From NCBI RefSeq assembly GCF_053078305.1, contig NZ_CP166879.1: 64,000 bases of DNA; one strand, given 5' to 3'. Below the pieces are notes generated by a model. It saw only the letters and a program-made list of their open reading frames with translations. It did no database searches and was not told the DNA's origin. Each line of letters starts with the position of its first letter. The stretch's first letter is position 1. The translations under genes were made by a program, and so were the position numbers. Below are positions 21,919 through 46,413 of the stretch, piece by piece.

Positions 21919-21920
21919 CG

Positions 21921-29919: not shown

Positions 29920-29962
29920 ATGGTGAGCCGGGCTTACGGCCCGGCCCCTGCGGAGGGCAAAT

Positions 29963-30316: not shown

Positions 30317-30732
30317 ATTACGCCACTGAAACCGATATGCGGGCGCGTTACCGCGAGGATTTGCTCAGGCCGTTACTGGCTGTGCCCCGTTCGGATGAGC
30401 CGGACATGCGCAAGCTGAACCGGGCGCTGACAGATGCGTCAGCCCTTATCGACAGCTATCTGTCCGCCCGTTACACGCTGCCGCTGGAGGTTATCCCGGC
30501 TGTTCTTGTTCAGCACTGTTGCGCGATTGCCTTTTATTACCTGTGCGATCAGCGAGCCTCCGATCAGGCGCGTGACCGTTACCGTGAGGCGCTGGCCTGG
30601 CTGAAAGATGTCATGAACGGCAATGTGCCGGTAGGTGTGGATACGAACGGAGCGGCCCCTGAATCCGGGGATTTACCACAGGTTCAGTCTGATGCAGCGG
30701 TATTCGGGCGCAACCAGAAGGGCTTCATATGA
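30313..30732 (+). CDS. head-tail connector-type protein (Mu gp36-like)
   Basis: 139-aa ORF with ATGA coupling. Called by synteny with Mu J/gp36. Confidence 0.55.
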   Translation: MNYATETDMRARYREDLLRPLLAVPRSDEPDMRKLNRALTDASALIDSYLSARYTLPLEVIPAVLVQHCCAIAFYYLCDQRASDQARDRYREALAWLKDVMNGNVPVGVDTNGAAPESGDLPQVQSDAAVFGRNQKGFI

Positions 30733-31289
30733 TTACGGAAACCGAACAGGCATACATCGCCCGTATCCGTGAGTATTTCGGGAATGAACTTGTGTCTGTT
30801 GACACGCATCCCGGCGACTGGAGCGACAGCGTACTGCGCACCATGCTGATTAACGCCCCGGCGATCTACGTTGCCTGGCTGGGTGCCGGTGAAGGCCGTA
30901 CCCGTGGTCGCCTGGTCAGTCACTGGGTGTTCTACGTCATCGGCGACATGCTCAACGGGCGTGAGGCCAGCCGTCCCGGACTGTATCAGATTGTGGCCCG
31001 GCTGATTGCCGTGCTTAACGGCTTCAGAACAGAAAAAACCTCACCGCTTTACTTTGAAAAGGCGGTCAACGGTTACACTGAAACCCAGGCGGACAGTGGT
31101 GCGGTGATGTATGCGCTTTATTTCTCCTGCGAGGAAATGATCGCGCCACTGACGGATATCAGCTCGCTGGACGACTTCCTGCGTCATTACGAAACCTTTG
31201 TGGAGCCGCCCGGTACGCTGCCGTTTGAGGCACATATTGATTTGCCGGGGAACACGACAACGGCGGTCGAACCGCCGGAGGAACTGTAA
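30729..31289 (+). CDS. head-tail joining-type protein (Mu gp37-like)
   Basis: 186-aa ORF with ATGA coupling. Called by synteny. Confidence 0.55.
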   Translation: MITETEQAYIARIREYFGNELVSVDTHPGDWSDSVLRTMLINAPAIYVAWLGAGEGRTRGRLVSHWVFYVIGDMLNGREASRPGLYQIVARLIAVLNGFRTEKTSPLYFEKAVNGYTETQADSGAVMYALYFSCEEMIAPLTDISSLDDFLRHYETFVEPPGTLPFEAHIDLPGNTTTAVEPPEEL

Positions 31290-31535
31290 ATGAAAACCAT
31301 CTTTATCAAACCCGCGCCGGGACGCCTGATTCGTGATCCCGACACAATGCGCCCGCTGGCACAGGAGGGGGAGGAAAAGCCCTTCACGCCGTTCTGGTGT
31401 CGGCGTCTTGATGACGGCGATGTCATTCAGGCTGAAAAAGCCGCTGAAGAGGCTCCGGCTGTATCTGCGGATGCAACGACTGCGACAGAAAAACCGGTCG
31501 CCCAACCGGCATCCGATAAGGAGAAACCGCAATGA
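31290..31535 (+). CDS. small hypothetical protein (Mu gp38-like position)
   Basis: 81-aa ORF between connector genes and the sheath gene, translationally coupled at both ends. Confidence 0.5.
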   Translation: MKTIFIKPAPGRLIRDPDTMRPLAQEGEEKPFTPFWCRRLDDGDVIQAEKAAEEAPAVSADATTATEKPVAQPASDKEKPQ

Positions 31536-33034
31536 TTAATTTTGACGGGATCGGTAATGACCGCCGTATACCGCTGATTGAGGTTGAGTTTAATAACTCC
31601 ATGGCTGTCACCGGCACCCCGGCACAGCGTCAGTGTGTACTGCTGTTTGGTCAGGCGAGAATGAAAGAGAATGCCGTGGACGGTACCGGTGTTCTGGATG
31701 TTCCGGTCAGGATCACCCGTGCGTCTCAGGCAACAGAACTCTGGGGGCGCGGCTCCATGATTGCCCTGATGGTGGCGGAATTTATCGCCATCAATCCTGA
31801 TGCTGAACTGTATGCCATTGCTCAGGGGAACGGCACCGGACAGGCAACGGCTGCGGCCATGAATCTGACCGGAACGGTCACCCGTGACGGGATTGTTTAT
31901 GCCTGCGTGGGGGGGCGACGTTATACACTCCCGGCACCAAAAGGTAAGAAAGGCAAAGAACTGACCGACGAGCTGGCCGCGCTGATCAATGCCGATCCTG
32001 ACGCGCCCTTCACGGCCTCCTCTGGTGCAGGAAGTGGTGATAATGGCGCAGGTCTGAAAGGGTCTCTGGGGATCACCGCCCGGTTTACCGGTGAATGCTC
32101 CGTGCATGATGTGCGCCTGAACTATCACGACGGGGAAGCAACCCCGGAAGGAATACAGGTCGCTATAGCCTATCCGAAACAAAAAGCGGCTAACCCGGAT
32201 ATCACCCGAAGCGTGGCGGGTATGGGCGATCGCCAGTACAACTATGTCGTCATGCCCTATAAGGATGATGCAAACCTGAAAATCATCAGTGATGAGCTTC
32301 TGAAACGCTGGGGACCGGCCAAAATGTCTGACGGCGTGCTGTGGCTGGCACATACCGGCACGTTTGGTGAGGTGCAGGCATTCGGGGCAAAACGCAATGA
32401 TTTTCTGGCGACCTGCACATCCATTCCCAAAGCCCCTGAACCGGATTACCTCTGGGCCGCGGCGGTCTGCGCCACCTGTGCACCCTCTCTGGGAGCAGAT
32501 CCTGCGCGTCCGCTTCAGACGCTGGCGCTTCCGTCACGCATGGCCCCGGCTCCGGCCGATCGTCTGACGCGTGAAGAGCGTAACAGTCTGCTGTGGGGAG
32601 GGATTGCCACGGTCAGTGTGGCTGCCGGTGATGTGGTTCAGATCGAACGTCAGGTGACCATGTATCGCCAGAACGTGTACGGCGAAAGTGATCCCAGCTA
32701 TCTGGATGTGGAAACCATCTACACCCTCTCCTGGCTGCGTTATTCCCTGCGTACTTTTATCACACAACGTTTTCCGCGCCATAAACTGGCTGATGACGGG
32801 ACGCCCGTTCGTGCCGGTCAGAATATCGTGACACCGGAGATCATGAAGCTTCAGTTAATTTCGCTGGGTGAAGAGTGGGTGGAACTCGGGCTGGTCGAAA
32901 ATCTGGACACCTTTAAAAAGAATCTGCTTGTGGAGCGTAATGCGTCAGATCGAAACCGTCTTGACGTGTTATGCACGCCGGATCTGGTTAACCAGTTCCG
33001 CTTCCTGGCAGCACAGATCCGTTTCATTTTGTGA
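31532..33034 (+). CDS. contractile tail sheath protein (Mu L/gp39-like)
   Basis: 500 aa. Size and position match Mu L (495 aa). It precedes the tube gene. Confidence 0.85.
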   Translation: MINFDGIGNDRRIPLIEVEFNNSMAVTGTPAQRQCVLLFGQARMKENAVDGTGVLDVPVRITRASQATELWGRGSMIALMVAEFIAINPDAELYAIAQGNGTGQATAAAMNLTGTVTRDGIVYACVGGRRYTLPAPKGKKGKELTDELAALINADPDAPFTASSGAGSGDNGAGLKGSLGITARFTGECSVHDVRLNYHDGEATPEGIQVAIAYPKQKAANPDITRSVAGMGDRQYNYVVMPYKDDANLKIISDELLKRWGPAKMSDGVLWLAHTGTFGEVQAFGAKRNDFLATCTSIPKAPEPDYLWAAAVCATCAPSLGADPARPLQTLALPSRMAPAPADRLTREERNSLLWGGIATVSVAAGDVVQIERQVTMYRQNVYGESDPSYLDVETIYTLSWLRYSLRTFITQRFPRHKLADDGTPVRAGQNIVTPEIMKLQLISLGEEWVELGLVENLDTFKKNLLVERNASDRNRLDVLCTPDLVNQFRFLAAQIRFIL

Positions 33035-33042
33035 GGTAAGGC

Positions 33043-33408
33043 ATGAGCGGAAAACAGTATCAGGGCACGGCCACTATCCGTGTGAACGGTCAGGAATACG
33101 AGACGCTTGAGGGGGCTACATTTTCTCCGTCAGGTTTTGAACGTGAAGTGGTGAAAGGCGCGAAAGTCTATGGTTACCGCCAGAAACCACGTGAAGCGAC
33201 GCTGGACTGCAAATTTCCGGCAGGCGGAGAAGGCTCACCAGCCGCTGATGAAATCAACAACTGGACTGCGGTCACTATCGAGTTTGTGGCGGATACCGGC
33301 GAAGTCCACATGATGACGAAGGCCTGGAGCAGTGAACCGGCCTCGCTTGACGGTGGCGGGGAGATCTCCGTGAAGTTCGCCAGCGCCACCAGTACCCGTG
33401 TTCAGTGA
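33043..33408 (+). CDS. tail tube protein (Mu M/gp40-like)
   Basis: 121 aa, immediately after the sheath gene. Confidence 0.8.
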   Translation: MSGKQYQGTATIRVNGQEYETLEGATFSPSGFEREVVKGAKVYGYRQKPREATLDCKFPAGGEGSPAADEINNWTAVTIEFVADTGEVHMMTKAWSSEPASLDGGGEISVKFASATSTRVQ

Positions 33409-33422
33409 TCAGGAAAAATAAA

Positions 33423-33899
33423 ATGACCACACGTAAGAAAAAAACGGCAGTTTCCGAGGCAGCCGTGATGGAGGCAATCCGGGAAGCACTTGAGGGGGCT
33501 GATCCACGCACTGCCGGGCTGACAGAGCAACTGGCAAAGGGATATGTGGATCTGCTTGATGGTCTGCCGTTTGGTGAGACCCGTGAATATCGTGTCACGT
33601 TCCGGGAACTGACAGCGAAAGACAGTATTGACGCAGAAGCAGAAGCCGAGCGCGTGGTGGAGACAAACAATGGCCCGATGCTGATAGCGTCTCCGTCGTT
33701 ACGCGGTGTTGCACTGCTGCGCCGTCAGATTGCCGAAGTGGGAGACATTGAAGGTCCGTTGTCACCCCGTCAGATTGGACAGTTAAGCGAGCGCGATCTC
33801 TCCCGCCTGATGGCAGCGGTCAGCCTGCTGGATACCGCGCTTGCCGGAAAGCTGGCAGCTGACCGGGGGCGATCAGGCGCAGTGTCGGGATCAGATTGA
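33423..33899 (+). CDS. tail assembly chaperone (Mu gp41-like)
   Basis: ORF-track 33405-33899. ATG at 33423 follows AGGA. Located between the tube and tape-measure genes. Confidence 0.6.
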   Translation: MTTRKKKTAVSEAAVMEAIREALEGADPRTAGLTEQLAKGYVDLLDGLPFGETREYRVTFRELTAKDSIDAEAEAERVVETNNGPMLIASPSLRGVALLRRQIAEVGDIEGPLSPRQIGQLSERDLSRLMAAVSLLDTALAGKLAADRGRSGAVSGSD

Positions 33900-34023
33900 A
33901 GAAGCGGCAATTATCCTGGGGATGGTGACAAAAAGCGGCCCGGAATGGGCGCTTAACCTCCCCCTGTCGCAACTTTACCGGCACTGCCGACAGACAGAAA
34001 AAATCATCAGAACGAAGCAGTAA
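33841..34023 (+). other. alternative-frame extension of the tail chaperone (candidate programmed frameshift product)
   Basis: An open frame offset by +1 (equivalently -2) overlaps the last ~60 nt of the chaperone gene. It runs to 2 nt before the tape-measure start. This matches the conserved two-ORF chaperone arrangement upstream of tape-measure genes. Confidence 0.4.
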
Positions 34024-34025
34024 GT

Positions 34026-36095
34026 ATGGCCCGAAATCTCAGAGCATCTCTGATAGTTGATTTGCTCGGCAATATCTCAGCCAAATCCCGCCAGTGGTCT
34101 CAGGAGCTGGGGGCATTCTCACACTCCGGCCAGGCGGGGCTGGGTGGTCTGGGAAATGCTGCCCGCCGTGCCGGGCAGGAAACAGATGTACTCGGAAGCA
34201 GGATGCAGCGCACGCTGGCCGGGGTGCGGGGCAGTATCCGCCATGTTACTTCTGATTTTGACCGTCTTCAGGGCAGTATTACCGGCACCATCGGGCGGAT
34301 CAGCAATCTTTACGGAATGCTGGCCGGTGGTGCTGCTGTATATGGCTTTAACCGGGGATTTATTCGCCCGGCAGCGGAGATGGAAACCTATATGATTCGC
34401 CTGAACTCCCTTTACAAAGGGGATCGGGCGAAAACGGATGATGTCCGCAGGTGGGCAATACAGAATGCGAAGGAAACCACCTGGGGGCTGGCTGGCGTCA
34501 TGCAGGAATATACGTCCAGTCTGGGCTTTGGTATGAGTGACAGGGAGGCCCGAAATTTTGTCACCATGCTTCAGGATCAGGGTGCCGTGGGCGGCTGGTC
34601 ACTGTCCGATGCACAGGGGGCATCCCTGCAACTGAAACAGATGTATGCAAGAGGCAGTATTCAGGCGGCGGATGCAAATATTCTTGCCACCTACGGCATT
34701 AATGCCTACCGCGTGCTGGCTGATCGTCTGGGTGTGGACCAGAAAGTGGTCAGAAAACTTGGTGAAAAAGGGCTGCTTGGGCCGGACAGTATTCGCCTGT
34801 TATTTCAGACGCTGGCGGAACAGGCCAGGGGAGCACAAAAGGACGCAATGAATTCCTGGAGTGGCCTGACGGCCATGATGGGTGACGTCTGGGATCAGTT
34901 TGCCCGGGATGTGATGGACAGTGGGCCATTTGAAAAACTGAAGGGTAATCTCAGGGGATTTCTTTCATGGGTTGACAGTGCCAAATCTGATGGCAGTTAC
35001 CATTCCCTGGCGGAAAGCACAGCATCAGCCATGAACCAGGGCTTTGAGTATGCCCGTGATGCAGTGACAGGGTTTTATCAGGCGATCAGAAAGGTACGCG
35101 ACACGCTTCAGGCTCTGCGGGATGCGGGCTATGGTGATGCGCTGGATCGCATTGGTCAGGGGGCACAGACCGCCGCGAAATACCTGCTGTACATGTATCT
35201 CGCCACCCGTGCACTGAAGGTAGTCCGCGCAATCGGGCTGGGAGCACTGCGACCAGGAGCGGCATTGTTGGGGTACGGATTATCCGCGGCGGCCGTGCTG
35301 ACCTCTCCTTTCCGCAAACCACAAACTACCGTACCGGGAACGCCGCCAGGACGCGGCCAGCGCTTTATAAACTTTCTTACCGGGGTAAATCCGGCAGCCG
35401 TTCAGCCAGTGCTTGTAACAAACTGGCCCGCAGGAGGGCTGTCCGGCACCGGCGCGACCGATACATCCTCAGGCGGACGTCAGGGGCGGGGTCGCAGGAA
35501 ACGCGGACCGGGGCGCGGAAGACCGGTCACGCCTCCCCTGCCACCGTCCCCTGTGCCACCGTCGCCCTCTTCTGGTGGGTCAGGGTTCTGGGGGCGCATG
35601 ATGGGGCGCGCCGGTGGGTTGCTTTCGTCTGCCGGTAACCGCATGGGACTGGGGCGTTTCTCCGGCTTTTTCCGCAGTGCCGGTGGACTGGCTGGACGGC
35701 TGGGTGGCGGTGCCCTGTGGGCTGGCGCGATGGCAGCCCCGGTTCTGCTGGATGGCAGCGCCAGTATCACAGACAAGGGAGAAGCGGTCGGCTCTCTTGC
35801 AGGCAGTATTGCCGGTGGTGCGCTGGGGGCGGCAGCCGGACCTGTGGGGATTGCCATTGGTTCCACGGTGGGCAGCTATCTCGGTAACTATCTGGGGGGG
35901 TGGCTGACTGAAGCCTGGCAGAAATTACGGGGCAGTGATGATGAAAGCAGTGGACAGGCGGTACAAAAAGCCTCTGCCCGTGTGGAGCTGGTTGCCCCGG
36001 AAGGGTGGCAGGCTCGCAGTATTGATATTGATGACACGTCCGGTCACGGACTGGATGTGAATGTCTGGAACGGAGGGAATTATGGCCTCTGGTGA
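34026..36095 (+). CDS. tail tape measure protein (Mu gp42-like)
   Basis: 689 aa with a helical N-terminal two-thirds and a Gly/Pro/Arg-rich low-complexity C-terminal region. Position is after the chaperone. Confidence 0.85.
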   Translation: MARNLRASLIVDLLGNISAKSRQWSQELGAFSHSGQAGLGGLGNAARRAGQETDVLGSRMQRTLAGVRGSIRHVTSDFDRLQGSITGTIGRISNLYGMLAGGAAVYGFNRGFIRPAAEMETYMIRLNSLYKGDRAKTDDVRRWAIQNAKETTWGLAGVMQEYTSSLGFGMSDREARNFVTMLQDQGAVGGWSLSDAQGASLQLKQMYARGSIQAADANILATYGINAYRVLADRLGVDQKVVRKLGEKGLLGPDSIRLLFQTLAEQARGAQKDAMNSWSGLTAMMGDVWDQFARDVMDSGPFEKLKGNLRGFLSWVDSAKSDGSYHSLAESTASAMNQGFEYARDAVTGFYQAIRKVRDTLQALRDAGYGDALDRIGQGAQTAAKYLLYMYLATRALKVVRAIGLGALRPGAALLGYGLSAAAVLTSPFRKPQTTVPGTPPGRGQRFINFLTGVNPAAVQPVLVTNWPAGGLSGTGATDTSSGGRQGRGRRKRGPGRGRPVTPPLPPSPVPPSPSSGGSGFWGRMMGRAGGLLSSAGNRMGLGRFSGFFRSAGGLAGRLGGGALWAGAMAAPVLLDGSASITDKGEAVGSLAGSIAGGALGAAAGPVGIAIGSTVGSYLGNYLGGWLTEAWQKLRGSDDESSGQAVQKASARVELVAPEGWQARSIDIDDTSGHGLDVNVWNGGNYGLW

Positions 36096-37431
36096 CGGTC
36101 GTGGTGCGTTCCGTGGTGTGCCGTTCCTCGTCTGGCGTGAGCAGCGCGAACGTGGCGGGCGAAACATTGTCCGTCGGGAATATCCGTTACGGGAAACCGG
36201 TGGGGCAGACGATCTGGGACCTAAACTGGCTGAATTTACGTTCAGTGTACTTGTGATGGGGGATGATGTTCAGACGCAGCGAAATCGTCTGCGTGATGCC
36301 CTTCGTGCTCCCGGTGCCGGGGAGCTGCTTCACCCGGATTACGGCACGTTAAATGTGCTGATAAACAGCTTTGAAAGTCGTTATAACGCCGCTGAACAGG
36401 GCGTGGTTGAGTTCACCATTAATGTCACGCCGGTAAGTGATGATACTGCACCTGCTGTCACACAGGACACGGCCGCCATTCTGGAGCAGAAGAGTACCAC
36501 CGCGCTCGGGCAGGTTTTTGAAACCCTGGAAGCGGGCTGGACGGTGATTTCTGACGGAATGCACGATGTCCAGGCAATGACCGAAACCATCAGCGATAAG
36601 GTGTCCGCCCTGGAAAATGCCGTTTCCGGCATGGGGATTGTACAGGATATCAGTGCCTTTACTGCCACGTTCACGGCGCTGAAAGGGAATGCCACGGCAT
36701 TACTGACAGCACCTTCCCGCATGGCCTCATCTTTTGCGGGGCTTTTCAGTGCCCTGATCACCCTGCCATCGCTGCCGTCACTGTCTTCAGGAGGCCTGAA
36801 TACCCGGCCCGGTGGCAGTATCGGCCGGACGACATCCGCCGTCTCTCAGGGAATGCCGCAACTGTACAGGACATTATCTTCCCTGCGTTACGTGCTGGAT
36901 GAGCAGGATAATCCGCAGACTCTCATCGGTCTGACACCGGCAGCACAAAAGAATATTCGTCTGATACGGGCGGTAATGCAGAGTGCTGCCGTGGTGGCCC
37001 AGGCACAGACCGTGGGAAAACTGCTGGATCAGGTTCTCAGTCAGGAAACCCTGCCGGACAGTGACGCAGCCCACCGTACCTGGCCTGTCTGGCTGGAAAG
37101 TTCAGTTGATCTTCAGCGCATTAACCGTGACTTAAGCGAAGCGCTCGAACGGCAGGTGATGACACTGTCCGGGCAGGGGTATACCGCCACGGCGCTGACG
37201 CTTCGTGATGCCAGACTGGCACTGACAGAGGATCTGAATACACGGGGAGTTCAGCTATCCGGTGCAACAGTAGTGACTGTACGTACCACCGAGCCTGCAC
37301 TGGTGACCCTGTACCGTGCCACCGGGAACAGTACCGGCTGGCAACGTTTTGTGCGCCGTAACGGTATTGTTGATCCGCTGTTCATTCCCGGAGGCCATTC
37401 AGTGGAGGTGATTAGTGAGCAGCAGGGTTGA
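36082..37431 (+). CDS. DNA circularisation protein (Mu N/gp43-like)
   Basis: ORF-track 36061-37431. ATG at 36082 follows GGAGGG. N-terminus FRGVPFLVWREQRERGGRNIVRREYP is typical of the Mu N family. Confidence 0.8.
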   Translation: MASGDGRGAFRGVPFLVWREQRERGGRNIVRREYPLRETGGADDLGPKLAEFTFSVLVMGDDVQTQRNRLRDALRAPGAGELLHPDYGTLNVLINSFESRYNAAEQGVVEFTINVTPVSDDTAPAVTQDTAAILEQKSTTALGQVFETLEAGWTVISDGMHDVQAMTETISDKVSALENAVSGMGIVQDISAFTATFTALKGNATALLTAPSRMASSFAGLFSALITLPSLPSLSSGGLNTRPGGSIGRTTSAVSQGMPQLYRTLSSLRYVLDEQDNPQTLIGLTPAAQKNIRLIRAVMQSAAVVAQAQTVGKLLDQVLSQETLPDSDAAHRTWPVWLESSVDLQRINRDLSEALERQVMTLSGQGYTATALTLRDARLALTEDLNTRGVQLSGATVVTVRTTEPALVTLYRATGNSTGWQRFVRRNGIVDPLFIPGGHSVEVISEQQG

Positions 37432-38539
37432 ACTGTATCTGGGCGGTGAGATTTTTTCCGGCTGGCTGACGGTGAGTGTTCGTCGCTCTCTTGAACATCT
37501 GGCGGGCTCCTTTGAACTGGGGGTAATGATGCCAGGTGTACGCCTTCCGTCATCCGTCCGTGCCGGTCAGTCTCTGGAATTGCGCATTGACGGTCAGCCT
37601 GTGATCACTGGCTGGCTGGATCAGGTCCGGCAGCGCATCAGCGCCACGCGTTTTCAGATCACGCTCAGCGGACGGGATAAAACCGGTGACCTGGTGGACT
37701 GTTCAGCCATTCATCCGGGCAGCCAGTGGAGGAACCGCACGCTGGAGCACATTGCTTCAGATTTGTGTGCTCCGTTCGGGGTCACGGTGCGCTGGCAGGT
37801 AAATGATGCAACGGCAGCCCGGCCCTTTTCCACCTTCACACTGGAAAACTCAGAAACCGTGGCAGATGCGCTGACACGGGCCGCGAGACACAGAGGCGTC
37901 CTGGTAACCAGTAATGCCGCCGGTGAACTGGTTTTCACTCAGGCCGGCAGTCAGCGTGGCGACACGCTGACGCTGGGCGAAAATCTGCTGGATTTGGATC
38001 ACAACGTGGATCACCGTCTGCGCCACAGTGAATACCGTGTACGGGGGCACGGGCGTGGTGGTGGTCATGCCGGGGATGCACTGACAGCCGGAACGCTGGC
38101 CGCACCCGTTGGTACGGTGACAGACAGTGCCATCCACCGTTACAGACCGAAAATTGTGCTGGCGGATCATGCTGTTGATGCAGACGGTGCACGCCAGAGG
38201 GCTGTCCGGGAAATGCGCCGGGCGGTTGCCCGCTCTGTGCGCCTGACAGCCACCGTGCGGCACTGGTTTCGGGAGAACGGCCAGTTGTGGGATATCAACC
38301 TGCTGACGGCTGTCACGGCTCCCCGCACCGGAGTGGAAGAGCGTGATCTTCTTGTCTGTCAGGTGGAGTTTTCGCTGGATGCAAATCACGGCGAAACCAC
38401 CCGTCTGATTCTGGCACCCCGTGACGGCTTTATTGTTCCGGCAGAGCCGGGAAACAGCGGAAGCGGAAATGCGGGTGACGTGGACGCCTTCGTGCGGGCA
38501 CAGATGAAAAAACAGGGGATTAAATTCAATGATGAATGA
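37415..38539 (+). CDS. baseplate hub / tail protein (Mu P/gp44-like)
   Basis: 374 aa with a GTG start after GGAGGTG. Called by synteny and size. Confidence 0.8.
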   Translation: MSSRVELYLGGEIFSGWLTVSVRRSLEHLAGSFELGVMMPGVRLPSSVRAGQSLELRIDGQPVITGWLDQVRQRISATRFQITLSGRDKTGDLVDCSAIHPGSQWRNRTLEHIASDLCAPFGVTVRWQVNDATAARPFSTFTLENSETVADALTRAARHRGVLVTSNAAGELVFTQAGSQRGDTLTLGENLLDLDHNVDHRLRHSEYRVRGHGRGGGHAGDALTAGTLAAPVGTVTDSAIHRYRPKIVLADHAVDADGARQRAVREMRRAVARSVRLTATVRHWFRENGQLWDINLLTAVTAPRTGVEERDLLVCQVEFSLDANHGETTRLILAPRDGFIVPAEPGNSGSGNAGDVDAFVRAQMKKQGIKFNDE

Positions 38540-39143
38540 CGAAGTCATCAGCCGCCTTCTGGCCCCCGTGATGCGGGGTGTTCGTCTGCTGTTCGGGCGT
38601 GGTGTACTGACCGGCACAACGGACACGCTGAAAATCCAGAATGTGCAAATCACCTGTATGGATGGTGAAACCTTTGATGACGTTGAGCGCCCCCAGCAGT
38701 ACGGGCAAATCAGCGTCCCCCTGCCTGGTGCGGAAGTTTTTCTGGCCTGTGCTGGCGGACAACGGGATCAGGCCGTGGTGCTTGTGGTGGAAGACCGCCG
38801 CAGTCGCCCGACCGGACTTACCGCCGGAGATACCGGCGTGTATCACCATGAGGGGCACCGTATACGTCTGACAAAGAACGGCCGGATCATTGTGACCTGT
38901 AAGACGCTGGAGATTTACGCCGATGAAGGTGTTCAGGTGGATACACCGGAGGCTCACTTTACCGGTAATGTCACAGTGGATAAGAACCTGCATGTCAAAG
39001 GCAATGTGTCCATTGACGGCACCGGAAGATCACAGGGGACGTTCACGATGTCCGAAGCGGTTATTGCCGGGATCGCCTATTCAGGTCATGTGCATCACGA
39101 TAACGGTGAAGGCAGCAAAACGGGAGGACCAGAGAATGGCTGA
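38529..39143 (+). CDS. baseplate spike / assembly protein V-type (Mu gp45-like)
   Basis: 204 aa with an OB-fold-plus-beta-helix-like C-terminus (FTGNVTVDKNLHVKGNVSIDGT...HVHHDNGEG), typical of gpV/spike proteins. Confidence 0.8.
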   Translation: MMNDEVISRLLAPVMRGVRLLFGRGVLTGTTDTLKIQNVQITCMDGETFDDVERPQQYGQISVPLPGAEVFLACAGGQRDQAVVLVVEDRRSRPTGLTAGDTGVYHHEGHRIRLTKNGRIIVTCKTLEIYADEGVQVDTPEAHFTGNVTVDKNLHVKGNVSIDGTGRSQGTFTMSEAVIAGIAYSGHVHHDNGEGSKTGGPENG

Positions 39144-39573
39144 TATTGCTGTCGTCTGGGATCAGGGTTGTGGTTCCCTGCAACTGAACGGCGCAGATCT
39201 TCTGACGGATAACAGCCTGCTGACTGCGGTCATTATTTCACTGTTTACGGACAGGCGGGCGCTGGATTCCGATGAAATCCCTGACGGCACCCGTGACCGT
39301 CGGGGATGGTGGGGAGACAGTTTCCGGGAGCGCCCCGTTGGCTCCCGTCTCTGGCTGTTAAGCCGTGAAAAGACGCTGTCCTCCGTGGTCAGCCGTGCAC
39401 AGGCCTATGCTGATGAAGCGCTGGCGTGGCTGCATAAAAGCGGTGCTGCCACATCCGTGGTATGTCATGCCATGCGTGTGGGGCATGATCGCCTTTCGCT
39501 TTCCGTGAAAATCACCCTGCCGGACGGAAGCAGACATCCGATGATTTTTTATGCTGATATGAAGGGGGAATGA
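39136..39573 (+). CDS. baseplate protein (Mu gp46-like)
   Basis: ORF-track 38923-39573. The in-frame ATG at 39136 gives 145 aa (Mu gp46 is about 147 aa) and removes the long overlap with the spike gene. Confidence 0.7.
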   Translation: MADIAVVWDQGCGSLQLNGADLLTDNSLLTAVIISLFTDRRALDSDEIPDGTRDRRGWWGDSFRERPVGSRLWLLSREKTLSSVVSRAQAYADEALAWLHKSGAATSVVCHAMRVGHDRLSLSVKITLPDGSRHPMIFYADMKGE

Positions 39574-40655
39574 TGCCTTATCAGCCCTTACCACTGGCGC
39601 AACTGATCACACAGACACAACAGGATATCAGCCAGCGCCTGCCCGGTTCGCAGCCGGGCGTGAATGAAACCACCCTGAATGCCATTGCGTATGCACTGGC
39701 GGGTCTGTCAGCACAGGAGCATGAACATCTGGCCTGGATCTCCCGGCAGATAATTCCGACAGAAGCTGATGAAGCCGAACTCCTGAAACACTGCGCATTC
39801 TGGGGTGTCATCCGTAAACCGGCTTCCCGCGCTGACGGACCGGTACAACTGATGCTGACCACGGATGCAGGGATCACGGAAGGCGTACTCCTTCAGCGAA
39901 GCGATGGTGTTGTGTACCGCATCACCGGCTCTGCGACCGGAAAAGCCGGAACACTGAATGTTAATGTGGAGGCGGAAAGTGCGGGGCGCGCCGGAAATAC
40001 CCCGACCGGAACCCGCCTGTCCTTTATCACGCCACAGGCGGGCATCAACCAGACAGCCACGGTTACCGGCACGGGACTCACCGGTGGTGCGGATGTGGAA
40101 ACGGTGCCGGAGTTGCTGTCCAGGCTGGTATTCCGGGTACAGAACCCGCCATCAGGGGGAACACAGTATGATTTTGAACGTTGGGCACGGGAAGTACCGG
40201 GCGTGACGCGGGCATGGTGTAAGCCTGAATGGCCAGAGGCGGGTAGTGTTGGTGTGACTTTTGTTCAGGATAATAACCCTGACATTTTCCCCGGAGAAGG
40301 TGATGTGAAGCGGGTGGCGGATTATATCCGCAGTCATGATGATCCGGCGACGGGCCAGCCCGTTGGTCAGCCACTTGGGCCGACAATCAGCGTGTTTAAG
40401 CTGACCAATAAGCCGGTGGCGTTTGAGATCAGGATTGTACCCAAAACGCCGGAAAATCAGGCTGCCGTAAAACAGGCATTAACGGACCTGCTTTATAACG
40501 AATCGCGGCCGGGTGGACTTGTATTGCCTTCATCATTCTGGCGGGCTGTTGCAGGGGTGAAAGGACTGGAGGATTTTGAAGTTCGCAGTCCGCTGAAGTC
40601 CGTAATGGCCGGAGATACAGAGTTGCTGACCGTGGGGGAAATCACATGGCTGTAA
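39570..40655 (+). CDS. baseplate wedge protein, J-like (Mu gp47-like)
   Basis: 361 aa with ATGA coupling. Called by synteny with Mu gp47 / P2 gpJ. Confidence 0.82.
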   Translation: MMPYQPLPLAQLITQTQQDISQRLPGSQPGVNETTLNAIAYALAGLSAQEHEHLAWISRQIIPTEADEAELLKHCAFWGVIRKPASRADGPVQLMLTTDAGITEGVLLQRSDGVVYRITGSATGKAGTLNVNVEAESAGRAGNTPTGTRLSFITPQAGINQTATVTGTGLTGGADVETVPELLSRLVFRVQNPPSGGTQYDFERWAREVPGVTRAWCKPEWPEAGSVGVTFVQDNNPDIFPGEGDVKRVADYIRSHDDPATGQPVGQPLGPTISVFKLTNKPVAFEIRIVPKTPENQAAVKQALTDLLYNESRPGGLVLPSSFWRAVAGVKGLEDFEVRSPLKSVMAGDTELLTVGEITWL

Positions 40656-41206
40656 CCCTGACCCCGCATCAGCGCGCCCTGTTGCAGTTGCTGCCTGACG
40701 GGCTGGCATGGGATAAGCGGCCGTCATCCGTTCTTGCAGCTTTGTGCCTGGGTCTCAGTCATTCCACGGAGCGTGTTTCCTGGACCGGTAACCAGATGCT
40801 GGCAGAACGTTTTCCTGATTCATCCCGTCTGCTACTGGAAGACTGGGAGCGTTATCTGGGGTTACCGGAATGTGATATGACCGGCGCAACCATTCAGGAG
40901 CGTCAGCGTTATGCCGGGAATAAATACCGGATGAAACCCTCTCTTAACCGTGAATTTTATATCCGGTTTGCGGCAGAGTTTGGTTATGAAATAGATATCC
41001 AGCCATCACCGGAATCACAATGGATCAGTATTGTGACAGTGAAGACGGCGGTGGGATACCGTCACATGAATGTGCTGGATGATATTCTCACGCCGCTGCG
41101 TATTTATGAAGGCGGTGCGCTGGAATGTATTCTGAACCGTTATAAGCCTGCATGGCAGACGTTTATTTACGTGTATGCAAACAGCCATGAAGAGGAGACT
41201 ATTTAA
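40646..41206 (+). CDS. baseplate/tail protein (Mu gp48-like, P2 gpI-like)
   Basis: 186 aa, precedes the tail fibre gene. Called by synteny. Confidence 0.72.
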   Translation: MAVTLTPHQRALLQLLPDGLAWDKRPSSVLAALCLGLSHSTERVSWTGNQMLAERFPDSSRLLLEDWERYLGLPECDMTGATIQERQRYAGNKYRMKPSLNREFYIRFAAEFGYEIDIQPSPESQWISIVTVKTAVGYRHMNVLDDILTPLRIYEGGALECILNRYKPAWQTFIYVYANSHEEETI

Positions 41207-42117
41207 TGTTTCATGTTGATAATAATTCCGGCGTGGCGAATATGCCTGCGCTGGCACCGGCGCAGAGTAATACCACCACCTGGTTTACCGAAGGTGACGG
41301 ACAAAAAGGTATCAGCTGGATTGGTCAGGACTGGCTGAATATTCTCCAGGCCGAACTGCTGAATATTCTGGCTGAAGCCAGTATTCAGCCGGATAAGGCG
41401 CAGTTAAACCAGCTTACGCTGTCCATTAAAGCCATTATCGCTGCGAATGCCTTTTCCCGGAAAAACAACCTGAAAGAAATTGCTGATGCCGGTGCGGAAG
41501 CCCAGCGTCTTGCCCGTGGTTATCTTGGTCTTGGGGCGCTTGCCACAAAAAACAGTCTTGGTCCCGGTGACGTTAATGCTCTGGCGAAGGATCAGAACCT
41601 TGCCGACCTGGAGAATGCGGGAACCGCCCGTAATAATCTGGATGTTTACAGCAAAAGCGAAGGTGATAACCGTTACCTGCGCAGGGAGCAGAACGGCGCA
41701 GACATTCCGGATAAAGGCGCTTTTATCGATAACGTCGGTTTACGGGAAACGGTAAATAAGGCTGCTGATGCCCTGCCATCGGGTGGAACCGCCGTGGCAG
41801 CAAACAGACTCGCCACCCCAAGAAATATTAATGGCGTTCCTTTTGACGGAACGCAGGATATCAACATCACGTCAGGAATGACGCAGTCAACCGCAGATGG
41901 CCGGTATGTACAGAATGTTCAGCTTGGAGCACAGAGCTATCATTCACCCGGAGGCAATGAAATATCATGGAATTACAGCGCACCTTCCGGTTGTATGCTT
42001 TCCGGTATTAACGTGCAGGAAACCGGCTCCCGGTCTGCGGACAATATCGGTGGGGTCTATTATCGCCCGGTTCAGATTTATATTAATAATGCCTGGAGAA
42101 CGGTAAGTTCAGTGTAA
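41206..42117 (+). CDS. tail fibre protein (S-like): constant N-terminal part fused to the currently expressed variable C-terminus (Sv)
   Basis: 303 aa. The gene crosses the left gix-like site at 41723-41748. Its C-terminal 127 aa lie inside the invertible segment and resemble the alternative cassette on the opposite strand. Confidence 0.82.
   Translation: MFHVDNNSGVANMPALAPAQSNTTTWFTEGDGQKGISWIGQDWLNILQAELLNILAEASIQPDKAQLNQLTLSIKAIIAANAFSRKNNLKEIADAGAEAQRLARGYLGLGALATKNSLGPGDVNALAKDQNLADLENAGTARNNLDVYSKSEGDNRYLRREQNGADIPDKGAFIDNVGLRETVNKAADALPSGGTAVAANRLATPRNINGVPFDGTQDINITSGMTQSTADGRYVQNVQLGAQSYHSPGGNEISWNYSAPSGCMLSGINVQETGSRSADNIGGVYYRPVQIYINNAWRTVSSV
41723..41748 (+). promoter_or_regulatory. 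left crossover site (gix-like) for the Gin-type invertase
   Basis: TTATCGATAACG-TC-GGTTTACGGGAA compares with Mu gix TTATCCAAAACC-TC-GGTTTACAGGAA. The core TC is at 41735-41736. Confidence 0.7.
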
Positions 42118-42127
42118 ACCACAGAAA

Positions 42128-42146
42128 AGGGTGCTGAATGCACCCT
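42128..42146. terminator. hairpin between the convergent tail-fibre gene and the tail-fibre assembly gene
   Basis: AGGGTGC-TGAAT-GCACCCT (7-bp stem). The minus-strand side is followed by TTTCTGTGG. Weak U-tract. Confidence 0.35.
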
Positions 42147-42151
42147 CTGAA

Positions 42152-42673
42152 TTATTCCGGTTTTTCCGGCCAGGGAATCGCCTGGTAATGCCCCTCACTG
42201 GCAATATCATTAAAGTGCATTTCTTTAAGCTGTCGGATATACGCCATCCAGCGCGTCAGCTGTAATTTATTTTCATCGCTAATCATGTCCAGTTTTAATT
42301 CTGTTTTCCAGTCATCCACGGTTTCGTTGGCTTCCTGGAGCAGCGATGAGCGACGCTTTTCAGCAACCGTCTTCCAGTTTACCGGCACCTTTGATATCAG
42401 GCCATCAGAAAACTGCCAGTTACCGTCAATATTCACACCTTCCGGCAGTTCGTCCACTTCAACAACAGTAAAACCTGCCGGATATAAAGCAGAGACATCT
42501 TCAGCAACAGAGCAGATAATACCCGTTACAGGCGAAATACAGAGTTTGTATTTCTTTGTGAAAAGCGGGATAGATTCATAAAAATCCCTTCCGTCCTCAC
42601 TCTGGAAATACTGAACATCCTCACCATAGGGTTTGTGTTCCGGGTAATATCGTTTTACGTTAATAAGCTCCAT
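42152..42673 (-). CDS. tail fibre assembly protein (U'-like chaperone) of the silent orientation
   Basis: ORF-track 42152-42784. ATG at 42673 follows AAGGTGA and gives 173 aa (Mu U is 175 aa). MELINVKRYYPEHKPYGEDVQYF... has a typical Tfa/U-family N-terminus. Confidence 0.8.
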   Translation of the reverse strand: MELINVKRYYPEHKPYGEDVQYFQSEDGRDFYESIPLFTKKYKLCISPVTGIICSVAEDVSALYPAGFTVVEVDELPEGVNIDGNWQFSDGLISKVPVNWKTVAEKRRSSLLQEANETVDDWKTELKLDMISDENKLQLTRWMAYIRQLKEMHFNDIASEGHYQAIPWPEKPE

Positions 42674-42752
42674 TATTTCACCTTGTTTTTGTTGAAAAGA
42701 CAAAATCATCATATATTTATTCAGATAATCTGTTTTTTGAACTACTGCACTT

Positions 42753-43109
42753 TTATGCGCTGGAAGCTGTTTTCCACGAACCATCTATCAGAAACTGAAC
42801 AGGTCGATAATATGCGGTTACCGTTGCATTACCATCACCAGCGACATCAAGCCCTGTAAGTACGCATCCGTCAGGAACTTCAAAAATATTATATTGCATT
42901 CCAATCGTTGACCTTGAACCTCTTCGAATGCTTTGAACATAACGTGAGTCAGCCACAGACTGCGTCATCCCCGATGTAATATTTATATCCTGCGTTCCGT
43001 CAAATGGGACACCATTAATATTTCTTGGAGTGGCGAGTTTATTCGCTGCAACAGCCGTTCCGTTCGATGGCAGGGCATTCGCGGCCCTGTTTACAGTATC
43101 CCGTAAACC
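42753..43109 (-). CDS. silent alternative tail-fibre C-terminal cassette (Sv'), no own start codon
   Basis: Read on the minus strand from the right gix core, the frame continues the S constant region: GLRDTVNRAANALPSNGTAVAANKLATPRNINGVPFDGTQDINITSGMTQSVADSRYVQ...YYRPVQFLIDGSWKTASSA. This parallels the expressed Sv. Confidence 0.75.
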   Translation of the reverse strand, partial: GLRDTVNRAANALPSNGTAVAANKLATPRNINGVPFDGTQDINITSGMTQSVADSRYVQSIRRGSRSTIGMQYNIFEVPDGCVLTGLDVAGDGNATVTAYYRPVQFLIDGSWKTASSA

Positions 43110-43123
43110 GAGGTTTCAGGGAT
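43098..43123 (+). promoter_or_regulatory. right crossover site (gix-like)
   Basis: ATCCCGTAAACC-GA-GGTTTCAGGGAT. Its reverse complement ATCCCTGAAACC-TC-GGTTTACGGGAT matches the left site and Mu gix. It is 55 bp upstream of the invertase gene. Confidence 0.75.
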
Positions 43124-43177
43124 GCCGTATATCTGCTTTAAAAGGCCTTTCCACCTCTTTTTAAGGAAGGTAAATAC

Positions 43178-43738
43178 ATGCTGATTGGCTATATACGCGT
43201 ATCAACAAATGACCAGAACACCGGTTTACAAAGAAATGCGCTGGAATGTGCAGGATGTGAGCAGATTTTTGAAGACAAAATGAGTGGTAAAACGACACAG
43301 CGGCCGGGACTGAAGCGGGCACTGAAGAAACTAAAACCCGGTGACACACTGATGGTCTGGAAACTGGACAGGCTGGGGCGCAGTATGCGCCACCTTGTTG
43401 CGCTGACAGATGAATTACAGCAACAGGGGATAAATTTTCGTAGTCTTACTGACAACATTGATACGTCAACCCCCATGGGGCGCTTCTTTTTTCACATAAT
43501 GGGTGCGCTGGCAGAAATGGAGCGTGAATTAATTGTCGAACGGACACGGGCTGGTCTTGCAGCTGCCCGTGAAAGGGGACGAACCGGCGGCAGACCCCGT
43601 CGTCTCACGCAGGAACAATACGAGCAGGTCGGGCGTTTACTGGCCGGGGGTGTCAGTCGAAGACAGGTGGCACTTATTTTTGATATCGGCCTTTCAACCC
43701 TTTATCGTTATTATCCTGCGAGCGTTTCGGAAAAATAA
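43178..43738 (+). CDS. gin: Gin/Hin/Cin/Pin-family serine DNA invertase
   Basis: 186 aa. MLIGYIRVSTNDQNTGLQRNAL... contains the catalytic Ser in RVST, a resolvase core, and a C-terminal HTH (RRQVALIFDIGLSTLYRY). Confidence 0.93.
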   Translation: MLIGYIRVSTNDQNTGLQRNALECAGCEQIFEDKMSGKTTQRPGLKRALKKLKPGDTLMVWKLDRLGRSMRHLVALTDELQQQGINFRSLTDNIDTSTPMGRFFFHIMGALAEMERELIVERTRAGLAAARERGRTGGRPRRLTQEQYEQVGRLLAGGVSRRQVALIFDIGLSTLYRYYPASVSEK

Positions 43739-43828
43739 GACGCTCCCTTTGTTGGGCCTTTACTGAATTAACGCAAAATGGCGTTTATCGGTCTGTGGAT
43801 ATGATAATTCTGTTTATTCAGGAACAGG

Positions 43829-45886
43829 ATGAATATTATGACGTCCAAATGGGTTCAACTATCATCAATGCCCGGAAACTTTACCGTTAAAGTTTCCGGT
43901 GGTACAGCGGCATTTCTTGAGGCTCCCTTTCCTCCTGCTGAAACGAAAGGAGGAATGACATTTGCTGACTGTCTCATCAGTTTTAATACACAGGATTGCC
44001 TGTGGGTAAGGCCAGTATCCGGTGATCCGAACGTGGAAATTACCGGAGCGGGTATTGGTGCTGTCATTCCGTTAAGTGCTGATGTTGCCGGTACTACTGA
44101 ACCGTCAGACTGGGATAATGCAGAAACACATACCCGTCCGGCAGGAAATGAAACGGCTTCCAGCTCCCCTTCCTGGTATTACGTGATTGTTATAGCCGGC
44201 CAGTCCAATGCTTCATCTTATGGTGAAGGGTTGCCCCTTCCGGATTCTTATGATCGTCCTGATCCACGTATTATGCAGCTGGCACGCAGGAATACACAAA
44301 CCCCCGGAGGTATTCCCTGCAAATACAATGAAATCATTCCAGCAGATCACTGCCTTCATGATGTTCAGAATATGAGTCTGCTGAACCATCCAAAAGCAGA
44401 CCTGAAAAAAGGGCAGTATGGTTGTGTGGGGCAGGGACTTCATATTGCGAAAAAAGTATTACCGGTGATTCCTGCTGATGCCGGGATTTTACTGGTTCCC
44501 TGTGCCCGTGGCGGCTCTGCTTTTACAACCGGCGCAGTTGGCTCATTCGATCCGGCAAGTGGTGCAGCCGAGGCGTCACTACGCTGGGGAGTGGATACCC
44601 CACTGTATCAGGATCTTGTCAGTCGAACTAAAGCGGCACTTGAGGCGAATCCAAAGAATGTGCTGTTATCTGTCGTATGGATTCAGGGGGAAGGAGACCT
44701 TAAAGCGACCCCGGCCCAGCATGGTGCCCAGTTTACTGCGATGGTGAAAAAATTCCGTGCGGATCTTGGGGCTTTCTCCGGTCAGTGTATTGGTGGTTCA
44801 TCAGACAGTGTGCCGTGGTTATGTGGTGACACAACCTATGACTGGAAAGAGAAGAACCCGGCGGCATATGAAACCATTTATAGCGGATATAAAAACCGGG
44901 CTTCCGAGAACATTCACTTTGTTCCACTGATGCACGATGAGTTCGGTAATAAAACCGCGACCAACCTGCCGGAGCACGACCCGGATATCGCTTCTGCCGG
45001 GTATTATGGTGCGGAATCACGGGGAGATGGCAACTGGACAACAGCATCCAGGGCAACCCATTTTAGCTCCTGGGCGCGCCGTTTTCTGGTCTCAGATCGT
45101 TTTGCATCAGCAATTCTTAAATATGCAGGTCTGACCTCTGCATTTATTGCCGGTGTGGCCCCTGATGGTGAAACCCTGCCTCAGCCCGCGCCGGGTGGGA
45201 AACCGGAAGCGCCGACAGGTAGTCAGCCAGGAGGCAGTGAGTCCCCCCATCCGACATCCCCGTCACTCCGTACGCTGCTTTCACTTAAAGCATCAGCAGG
45301 AGAAGCCCCGGCTCAGGGCTGGAAAATTACAGATGGTACAATCCAGCTGACGGACGAAGGTAAAGCGTTGACCGTATCCAAACAAAGCGGAAAAACCTGG
45401 ACGCTTACCCATGGAACTGATGCAGCCGGTGAACTTCTGAAGCATGGTGGTCAGTTGACCTGTAAATTCCGTCTGTCAGGTGAAGTAAAAGAAGGCCAGT
45501 TTGCTCTGGGTATTTACCTCCACACCGATACGGTCCCGGAAGGTGTAACCATGAGTGGTACAGGCACACCGTTCCTGATGGCGTATTATCTCCAGACAAC
45601 AGGCGGCCAGTTAAATCTGATGCACCATAAAACAGGGGGGAATACGAAACTGGGATCATTTGGAGCCTACAATAACCAGTGGCATACACTTGTCCTGAAG
45701 TTTACGGCGGGAAGTGCCCAGGTAACGCCTGTGCTGGATGGCACTCCGGGCCAGGCATTCCAGATGGTGAAAGATGCACTTTCCCCTGCCAAAGATACGC
45801 TGACACTGACAGATGTCACCAAAGGGGCAACTTATGGCGTGTCTTTTGAGAGCGTTGTCCTTGAGGTTAATACCCCTGCGGCATAA
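43829..45886 (+). CDS. three-domain cargo protein: unknown N-terminal domain + SASA-type (sialate O-acetylesterase-like) esterase + LamG/ConA-like C-terminal domain
   Basis: 685 aa. VIVIAGQSNASSYGEG and VVWIQGEGD are the GQSN and WxQGExD blocks of the SASA / 9-O-acetylesterase family. A Pro/Gly-rich linker (PQPAPGGKPEAPTGSQPGGSESPHPTSPS) precedes a beta-rich C-terminal ~200 aa (NQWHTLVLKF). SD AGGAACAGG. Confidence 0.75.
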   Translation: MNIMTSKWVQLSSMPGNFTVKVSGGTAAFLEAPFPPAETKGGMTFADCLISFNTQDCLWVRPVSGDPNVEITGAGIGAVIPLSADVAGTTEPSDWDNAETHTRPAGNETASSSPSWYYVIVIAGQSNASSYGEGLPLPDSYDRPDPRIMQLARRNTQTPGGIPCKYNEIIPADHCLHDVQNMSLLNHPKADLKKGQYGCVGQGLHIAKKVLPVIPADAGILLVPCARGGSAFTTGAVGSFDPASGAAEASLRWGVDTPLYQDLVSRTKAALEANPKNVLLSVVWIQGEGDLKATPAQHGAQFTAMVKKFRADLGAFSGQCIGGSSDSVPWLCGDTTYDWKEKNPAAYETIYSGYKNRASENIHFVPLMHDEFGNKTATNLPEHDPDIASAGYYGAESRGDGNWTTASRATHFSSWARRFLVSDRFASAILKYAGLTSAFIAGVAPDGETLPQPAPGGKPEAPTGSQPGGSESPHPTSPSLRTLLSLKASAGEAPAQGWKITDGTIQLTDEGKALTVSKQSGKTWTLTHGTDAAGELLKHGGQLTCKFRLSGEVKEGQFALGIYLHTDTVPEGVTMSGTGTPFLMAYYLQTTGGQLNLMHHKTGGNTKLGSFGAYNNQWHTLVLKFTAGSAQVTPVLDGTPGQAFQMVKDALSPAKDTLTLTDVTKGATYGVSFESVVLEVNTPAA

Positions 45887-45943
45887 TCGTGACGGCCGGG
45901 AATTTATCCGGCTGTAACATCAGTTAATAAGAGTGAGGCTTAT

Positions 45944-46123
45944 ATGACATATATAAACGTCTGCCTGCTGTATTTCTGCACGGTGGTTTGTTGTCTGTTG
46001 CTTGTCAGCGGTGGTTATAAAATTATTCGCAATTATTTTCGAAATAAAATTGATGCAGCTGCCGAGGAAAAGATAAAAAGCGGTGCTGTAATGCCGCAGC
46101 CGAAAGACTCCGGTCAGATTTAA
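45944..46123 (+). CDS. candidate small membrane protein (59 aa; below ORF-track cut-off)
   Basis: ATG at 45944 follows GAGTGAGG. MTYINVCLLYFCTVVCCLLLVSGGYKIIRNYF... has one N-terminal TM helix and a charged tail. Confidence 0.45.
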   Translation: MTYINVCLLYFCTVVCCLLLVSGGYKIIRNYFRNKIDAAAEEKIKSGAVMPQPKDSGQI

Positions 46124-46158
46124 TTTTTTGTGAACCAGAAAAGGAAAGGAGAATATTC

Positions 46159-46404
46159 ATGCCAGAGATTAAAGGCACGGTTACTGAAGAGCTTGTCAAA
46201 CAGGCACTTTATTCTGAAGAAGTGAACCGCGTGCTGAAGGCGCAGGTTCGCAAGGATTTTGAGGCACAAATCGACGCATATGTTGATGAAGTGCTGGCCC
46301 GAATGGTTGGTCGTTCTCCGGCTGAAAACAGCACGGAAAATGAGCCTCAACCCGTAGAGCAACCAGAGCCGGTTCAACCCGGAACTGACGGTACTATGAT
46401 GTAA
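46159..46404 (+). CDS. hypothetical 81-aa protein, helical N-terminus and acidic Pro-rich tail
   Basis: ORF with SD AAGGAAAGGAG. The tail reads ENSTENEPQPVEQPEPVQPGTDG. No recognisable family. Confidence 0.5.
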   Translation: MPEIKGTVTEELVKQALYSEEVNRVLKAQVRKDFEAQIDAYVDEVLARMVGRSPAENSTENEPQPVEQPEPVQPGTDGTMM

Positions 46405-46413
46405 CAATACCGA

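Follow-up and report, generated by a model that had tools for sequence, protein, structure and literature searches.

The 64,000-nucleotide stretch of contig NZ_CP166879.1 (RefSeq assembly GCF_053078305.1) that was analysed here, called the window throughout, contains a Mu-like prophage with a gene of 685 codons which, with a probability of roughly 0.78, encodes a functional sialate 9-O-acetylesterase of the NanS-p family. Judging from sequence comparison and structure modelling, the protein would consist of an N-terminal all-beta domain, a NanS-type catalytic domain and a lectin-like C-terminal domain, these three modules being joined by two disordered linkers. The combination of enzyme and lectin is that of an already known family, and the new element is the N-terminus, a domain of ~80 residues that appears to be specific for Mu-like prophages.

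The assignment as an esterase is based foremost on the catalytic domain. The Pfam family SASA (PF03629) was matched with an E-value of 1.6e-13 and 51.3 bits (gathering cut-off 24.8), PHROG 143 with 1.9e-273 over residues 65-684, and the structure of NanS (YjhS) from E. coli, PDB entry 3PT5, with 3.8e-110 over residues 108-432, all of them values that chance could hardly produce. In addition, the AlphaFold2 model superposes on 3PT5 in Foldseek with a template modelling (TM) score of 0.86 and 54% identity, so the SASA/SGNH fold was found both by hidden Markov model (HMM) and by structure. These results confirm an earlier note on this DNA, made from its letters alone, which had proposed an O-acetylesterase of the SASA type because of its GQSN and WxQGExD blocks. 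Indeed, VIVIAGQSNASSYGEG contains GQSN at residues 124-127 and VVWIQGEGD contains WIQGEGD at residues 284-290, and the block residues of the catalytic domain are invariant in 32 homologues.

NanS, which has been described as a 9-O-acetylsialic acid esterase, uses a Ser19/His301 dyad and an oxyanion hole formed by Gln18 and a Gly, without a catalytic Asp (PMC9063846). Gln125, Ser126 and His411 of the window protein align with Gln18, Ser19 and His301 and are likewise intact in all 32 homologues. The Ser-His-Asp triad assumed in the earlier note thus has to give way to the Ser-His dyad and Gln/Gly oxyanion hole of the NanS family, with Ser126 as the predicted nucleophile, His411 as the predicted base, and Gln125 together with a backbone Gly as the putative oxyanion hole. 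The catalytic domains of the chromosomal NanS and the Mu-borne esterase are homologous throughout and have the dyad and the Gln oxyanion residue in common; NanS, however, is a single-domain protein of about 326 residues that is not phage-borne and lacks the N-terminal module, the linker and the lectin domain.

The C-terminal domain belongs to DUF6645 (PF20350; E-value 8e-26, 90.9 bits, residues 537-647) and matches the solved C-terminal domain of the NanS-p protein from phage phi24B (PDB 6YP6) with an E-value of 9.8e-42 over residues 481-682; in Foldseek the two superpose with a TM score of 0.87 and 38% identity. The jelly roll also superposes on L-type lectins and has the concanavalin A (ConA)-like lectin fold. 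Its closest solved neighbour outside its own family is the sialic-acid-binding lectin domain of the V. cholerae sialidase (2W68; Foldseek E-value 3e-9, TM score 0.64), and further fold neighbours are ERGIC-53/VIP36, calreticulin and the botulinum HCN domains (BoNT HCN). The term LamG/ConA-like used in the earlier note is therefore correct at the level of the fold, a ConA-like beta-sandwich, but not for LamG, as no Pfam LamG/Laminin_G model matches the protein even at E <= 1 and the family is DUF6645. For the solved NanS-p C-terminal domain a role as a carbohydrate-binding module has been proposed (PMC10462455), and the likeness of the modelled domain to 2W68 hints that it may recognise sialoglycans.

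Several points weigh against the assignment as a functional sialate 9-O-acetylesterase. The loop with the catalytic Ser (residues 126-141) has a low predicted local distance difference test score (pLDDT) in the AlphaFold2 model, which probably reflects the shallow alignment, and block IV reads RATH instead of the usual RSSH or RASH. Esterase activity is predicted by analogy for this allele and for the Mu-type alleles in general, the published activities being those of NanS and of lambdoid NanS-p proteins, and a substrate other than Neu5,9Ac2 could be accepted, given that the C-terminal domain shares just 38% identity with its solved counterpart. As to the timing of expression, a consensus scan for a promoter upstream of the gene performed no better than shuffled expectation, and the alignment of the upstream regions showed conserved blocks and no recognisable promoter.

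The AlphaFold2 models were calculated from a family alignment of 32 sequences and a separate N-terminal alignment of 10 sequences, and they divide the 685-residue protein into three folded modules and two disordered linkers (Table 1). The N-terminal domain of ~125 residues given in the earlier note does precede the esterase; it is really a folded all-beta domain of ~80 residues plus a disordered linker of ~35 residues. The Pro/Gly-rich linker named there was found again; of its 48 residues (433-480), 10 are Pro and 8 are Gly, and its pLDDT is below 50. Neither a signal peptide nor a transmembrane segment was detected in the protein, and no NCBIfam model exists for it.

Two start codons come into consideration. 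The RefSeq-style start is the first ATG at 43829 (MNIMTSKW...), nine bases upstream of a second ATG at 43838 (MTSKW...), which is the conserved one in an alignment of the four types of N-terminal domain and gives a protein of 682 residues, the length of the cluster representative P0004. A conserved element, ...TTCAGAAACAGG..., is located just 5' of this second ATG. A conserved hairpin sequestering the ribosome binding site was considered and rejected, with z-scores of -1.9 to +0.1 and a structure prediction that was inconsistent across the types.

Table 1. Coordinates of the esterase gene, its predicted domains and residues, and the surrounding prophage features in the window
Feature	Position	Strand	Residues and remarks
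NanS-p-family sialate O-acetylesterase gene (predicted)	43829..45886	+	685 aa as in RefSeq; open reading frame, Pfam, PHROG 143 and PDB matches
N-terminal domain	43841..44068	+	aa ~5-80; small all-beta cupin-like barrel, no Pfam family; occupies the place of DUF1737 of lambdoid NanS-p
Linker 1	44069..44173	+	aa 81-115; Ser/Thr/Ala/Pro-rich, disordered, ends ...SSSPSW; pLDDT < 50, composition
NanS-type SASA / SGNH type II catalytic domain	44174..45124	+	aa 116-432; 3PT5 match, Foldseek
Catalytic-domain landmarks			GQSN aa 124-127, WIQGEGD aa 284-290, RATH aa 408-411
Predicted nucleophile Ser126 codon	44204..44206	+	aligned with NanS Ser19; preceding Gln125 is the oxyanion-hole residue
Predicted catalytic base His411 codon	45059..45061	+	aligned with NanS His301
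Linker 2	45125..45268	+	aa 433-480; Pro/Gly-rich, disordered; pLDDT 28-43
C-terminal lectin-like jelly-roll domain (DUF6645)	45269..45883	+	aa 481-685; predicted carbohydrate-binding module
Complete Mu-like (Sp18-type) prophage, 39.1 kb	8897..48039	+	junctions by megablast; repeated end motifs ATTTGATACC; MuA, MuB, Ner, portal, gpT
Gin-type serine invertase	43178..43738	+	directly upstream of the esterase; Pfam Resolvase and HTH_7
DUF1378 small hydrophobic protein	45944..46123	+	trio gene 2; Pfam E-value 9.2e-24; synteny
DUF826 small acidic protein	46159..46404	+	trio gene 3; Pfam E-value 3.1e-15; synteny
com-mom operon	47020..47911	+	directly downstream of the cassette; Pfam Zn_ribbon_Com, Mom

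The N-terminal domain is all-beta with a pLDDT of 83-90 in the dedicated AlphaFold2 model, whereas the DUF1737 fold comprises one helix and three strands (10.64898/2026.04.10.717836). DUF1737 (PF08410), for which a check by HMM had been suggested in the earlier note, turned out to be absent: no match at E <= 1 was obtained with the whole protein or with residues 1-115, and the two N-termini are unrelated, with 10-18% identity in the alignment. When 1.84 billion representative proteins were scanned exhaustively with HMMER, the domain was detected only on NanS-type esterase fragments, four in number. A word-indexed search for distant relatives returned only fragments of the same protein, and among species-representative genomes there was no match. 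The fold searches gave only generic cupin-like matches, those in BFVD being small uncharacterised phage proteins with E-values >= 5e-3, and pointed to no specific relative.

One further match of the HMMER scan, P0127, was discarded as a compositional artefact, being a low-complexity protein of Ala/Gly/Thr repeats. Likewise, a supposed third N-terminal type in the P2-like phage vB_EcoM-705R2 was dropped, as the esterase there begins with a DUF1737 domain and the entry is only part of a genome. In this Peduoviridae record (ON470623.1; positions 11800-13050 of our locus L043) the DUF1737-type NanS-p gene directly follows the holin/endolysin genes and is cut by the record end, and either the esterase module is also found in P2-like phages or the assembly is chimeric.

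All occurrences of the N-terminal domain were in Mu-like prophages, namely in the window and in 42 loci fetched from elsewhere (41 loci, not counting L044 which was analysed separately, plus L045). In each of the 42 loci the esterase gene is followed at the same position by genes for DUF1378 and DUF826 proteins. As far as the contigs reach, the gene order is gp47-gp48-fibre-Tfa-(gin)-esterase-DUF1378-DUF826-com-mom, with a Dcm-type methylase instead of mom in some. Even a far more distant Mu-like prophage, with only 24-38% identity in the baseplate proteins, has the esterase after gin, with an N-terminal domain that is 29% identical.

The coding sequence of the N-terminal domain was present in about 4% of the complete E. 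coli genomes, type A in 204 and type B in 28 out of 5,426, and many of the carriers are O157:H7 or other E. coli that produce Shiga toxin (STEC); the exact allele of the window was found in 37 genomes. In RefSeq these genes are named either "sialate O-acetylesterase" or "DUF6645 domain-containing protein". The earlier statement that the gene is an unusual cargo of a Mu-like phage was thus overstated. No paper discussing a Mu-borne NanS-p was found within the searchable literature, and the variant is widespread, yet apparently undescribed.

A tblastn search of phage records yielded 353 records, nearly all from Shiga toxin (Stx)-converting or other lambdoid phages, with 50-61% identity, in line with the kinship to NanS-p of Stx prophages that had been noticed before. 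The alignments to the lambdoid proteins begin only at residues ~71-109 and extend to residue 682; the N-terminus was covered by just two phage records, both labelled "Mu-like phage inserted in an Stx phage". The window esterase has in common with NanS-p of phages 933W (L0105/z1466) and phi24B (vb_24B_21/gp84) the SASA core with its block motifs, the DUF6645 domain, the disordered linkers and the downstream genes for DUF1378 and DUF826. It is thus a prophage-borne NanS homologue with DUF6645; however, the DUF1737 of the lambdoid proteins, reported as the capsid anchor in phi24B, is replaced by the unrelated beta domain, and in place of the lambdoid late region, where the NanS-p gene lies between stx/Q and the lysis genes, the gene is located between gin and com/mom. 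The carrier differs accordingly, a transposable Mu-like myovirus as opposed to a lambdoid phage.

NanS-p enzymes de-O-acetylate Neu5,9Ac2 as well as mucin glycans and allow lysogens to grow on Neu5,9Ac2 (PMC8065619). In the lambdoid phage PA2 the gene order is stx-esterase-DUF1378-DUF826-holin, and an arrangement of this type before the lysis genes has been noted in the literature (PMC10462455). As the same trio is found in the Mu-like loci and in PA2, it represents a unit common to both phage types, i.e. a three-gene module. At the DNA level the lambdoid genes are only about 67% identical, so the transfer between the phage types was not a recent one.

Within the module the parts have different histories. 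The homologue from another Mu-like prophage (locus L002) is 93.5% identical to the window protein in the N-terminal domain, 68% in the esterase and 43% in the C-terminal domain, and at the boundary between the first two the synonymous divergence (dS) rises from about 0.04-0.1 in the N-terminal domain to above 1.8 in SASA, which indicates a recombination breakpoint in the region of linker 1. The C-terminal domain, the most variable and most shuffled part of the esterase, is 55-62% identical to the corresponding domains of one group of DUF1737-type proteins and 32-44% identical to that of any other Mu-type protein. According to these identities, the catalytic and lectin parts are exchanged between the phage types, while the N-terminal module always stays with the backbone. 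Compared with the CI5 prophage, the identities are 60% (N-terminal domain), 65% (SASA) and 40% (C-terminal domain), and the cassette belongs to the parts of the prophage that diverge most, the head genes being 91-98% identical otherwise.

The gene is the first of the module that precedes the lysis genes in lambdoid Stx phages and that is fixed between gin and com/mom in a Mu-like lineage of E. coli and Shigella. As there is no signal peptide, the enzyme would reach the gut lumen only by phage lysis or on the virion. There it would deacetylate free Neu5,9Ac2 and the sialoglycans of mucin at the 9-O position, with the DUF6645 jelly roll most likely binding glycans and keeping the enzyme on its substrate, and the deacetylated sialic acids could then be used by sialidases and the Nan pathway of E. 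coli. Both the substrate proposed here and the advantage for the lysogen are inferred from the characterised NanS and NanS-p homologues.

A different emphasis, compatible with this enzyme identity, is that the N-terminal domain attaches the esterase and lectin to the particle of the Mu-like phage, either at the hexons of the capsid or at the tail, in the way DUF1737 does in gp84 of phi24B. The phage would then be the primary beneficiary, by adherence to mucus or by removal of decoy or blocking acetyl groups, and the gain of the lysogen would be secondary. We regard such a displayed enzyme as possible though tentative. In a preprint of 2026 the DUF1737 of NanS-p was described as a hexamer that is inserted in the central hexon on every face of the phi24B capsid, and gp84 as an abundant and proteolytically processed component of the virion (10.64898/2026.04.10.717836). 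By analogy with this report, the idea of an N-terminal virion adaptor, raised as an alternative in the earlier note, has become more credible.

The occurrence of a different fold at exactly the position of DUF1737, the restriction of this fold to the esterases of Mu-like prophages, including the one with the very divergent baseplate, and the long flexible linker behind it, which would be expected of a displayed module, are all in favour of display on the virion. In addition, the N-terminal domain is under strong purifying selection, the ratio of nonsynonymous to synonymous substitutions (dN/dS) being 0.04-0.16, compared with 0.09-0.15 in SASA; selection on the N-terminal domain is no weaker than that on the catalytic core.

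The catalytic and lectin parts are swapped with those of lambdoid alleles and the N-terminal domain never is; however, its linkage to the backbone may also be neutral, because there is no homology upstream of SASA at which a lambdoid N-terminus could recombine. Co-variation of the N-terminal domain with the capsid is not evident, since between the window prophage and CI5 the N-terminal domains differ by 40% where the major capsid proteins are 91% identical, a comparison which is uninformative in view of the mosaic backbone. Furthermore, no paralogue of the domain was found among the virion proteins or any other proteins of the prophage, the fold search yields only the generic cupin-like matches, and DUF1737-type esterases are found in phages of different capsid types, so that the specificity of that anchor is itself unproven. 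Taking both sides into account, a role of the N-terminal domain as a virion anchor in place of DUF1737, the one we would favour for it, is conceivable rather than probable.

We consider it improbable that the enzyme deacetylates the bacterial surface, i.e. O-antigen, K1 polysialic acid or colanic acid, and so exposes or destroys the phage receptor in the manner of esterase tailspikes. The idea has been raised for NanS-p in a review (PMC8065619), and the window protein resembles the tailspikes and other virion SGNH deacetylases in being an SGNH-type esterase encoded after tail-fibre genes and possibly located on the virion. The hypervariable C-terminal domain, as seen in receptor-binding proteins, would fit as well, and the SASA region has a weak PHROG match to a "tail protein" family (phrog_25867, E-value 1.1e-6), which is however confined to the esterase core. 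On the other hand, the catalytic domain is 54% identical to NanS in the structural alignment, neither a tailspike-like beta-helix nor a trimerisation domain is predicted, the module is found beside lysis and not tail genes in lambdoid phages, and the nearest neighbour of the lectin fold outside its family is a domain that binds sialic acid.

That the gene is a functionless, decaying remnant of a lambdoid phage trapped in a Mu-like genome, for which the frameshifted minus-strand reading frame next to the cassette (46443-46840) and the N-terminus without a known family might be quoted, is effectively refuted by its conservation and by selection, as the 685 codons are uninterrupted, the catalytic residues are invariant, every domain has a dN/dS far lower than 1 (0.04-0.35) and the position is kept across Mu-like phages with structural proteins down to 24-38% identity.

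The carrier was recognised as a Mu-like prophage by its Pfam content, which includes a CI-type repressor, a Ner-type helix-turn-helix protein, MuA, MuB, Portal_Mu, gpT at 28972-29919, a contractile tail, a Gin-type resolvase, Com and Mom. This agrees with the setting described in the earlier note, a Mu-like prophage with the esterase after the tail-fibre/invertase block. The prophage has the backbone of Mu, D108 and SfMu, with c/ner/A/B, Portal_Mu, gpT, the contractile tail, the Gin-invertible fibre segment and com-mom. Mu itself is not known to have any gene between gin and com. For SfMu, the stretch from gin to mom corresponds to a PCR product of 1.5 kb (PMC4406740), which is too short for the esterase-trio insert of ~3.2 kb.

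In strain STEC799, RefSeq annotates a near-identical prophage whose genes follow one another in the same order. As typical for a Mu-like element, insertions were found at unrelated host sites across strains: in yegH (left junction) and ftnB (right junction) in the window according to megablast, in an autotransporter gene in STEC799, in a gene of the type VI secretion system in L003, in a truncated gene for a molybdopterin cofactor-binding domain beside xdhB in CI5, and in RHS, csiR or wzzB in others. The left flank of the window prophage (8209-8896) is a truncated yegH of the TerC family, beside wza-wzb-wzc, and the right flank (48040-48177) a truncated ftnB beside araFGH, two pieces of host DNA which we take to be non-contiguous and in opposite relative orientation on the K-12 map. 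A 5-bp target-site duplication is absent from the prophage ends (CTTCG versus CTGGG), and none of the complete E. coli genomes has either prophage-host junction. The junctions look like the result of a Mu-mediated inversion or of recombination between two prophage copies.

Upstream of gin, two inverted repeats of 182 nucleotides (41731-41912 and 42934-43115, 79% complementary) flank the invertible tail-fibre segment, which holds a single gene, for the tail-fibre-assembly protein Tfa (42152-42784), on the minus strand in the window. In six related loci (L009, L018, L019, L028, L033 and L036) Tfa has the plus orientation, and as the orientation differs among loci the segment evidently flips in nature. 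Between DUF826 and com, the minus strand contains at 46443-46840 two overlapping reading frames of 64 residues (with Cys-x2-Cys motifs) and 115 residues, which are annotated in RefSeq as one frameshifted hypothetical gene in STEC799.

In some sister prophages (L002, 11429-12481; L003, 11792-12844) a Dcm-type cytosine-5 DNA methyltransferase of 350 residues is encoded behind com in the place of mom and is an alternative anti-restriction module at this position. Just 3' of the major capsid gene, the FluMu_N/HI1506-related protein (29963-30316) is only 68.5% identical to that of CI5 and differs by ~32 residues in length, compared with 91-98% identity of the neighbouring head proteins, and could be a surface-exposed component of the head.

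NanS-p esterases are thought to help enterohaemorrhagic E. coli and other STEC to feed on O-acetylated mucin sialic acids and have so far been studied only in lambdoid prophages. The same module of enzyme and lectin is now seen in phages of a second class, unrelated to the first, and counts of nanS-p alleles per strain which look only for DUF1737-type genes would miss the Mu-type copies. The exchange of the N-terminal module, together with the report on the DUF1737 anchor, makes this domain a candidate for a new attachment domain of Mu-like particles. Going one step further, and doubtful as this generalisation is, temperate phages of E. coli might share a plug-and-play system of virion display, in which an exchangeable cassette of esterase and lectin, acting on the sialoglycans of mucin, is mounted on an N-terminal anchor specific for the type of phage, DUF1737 in lambdoid phages and the ~80-residue beta domain in Mu-like ones. 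Should the N-terminal domain have no role in the virion, the gene would simply add one more class of alleles to a known family; if it has one, Mu-like virions, too, would bear an enzyme active on mucus, and the domain would represent a new family of modules that attach to the capsid or the tail.

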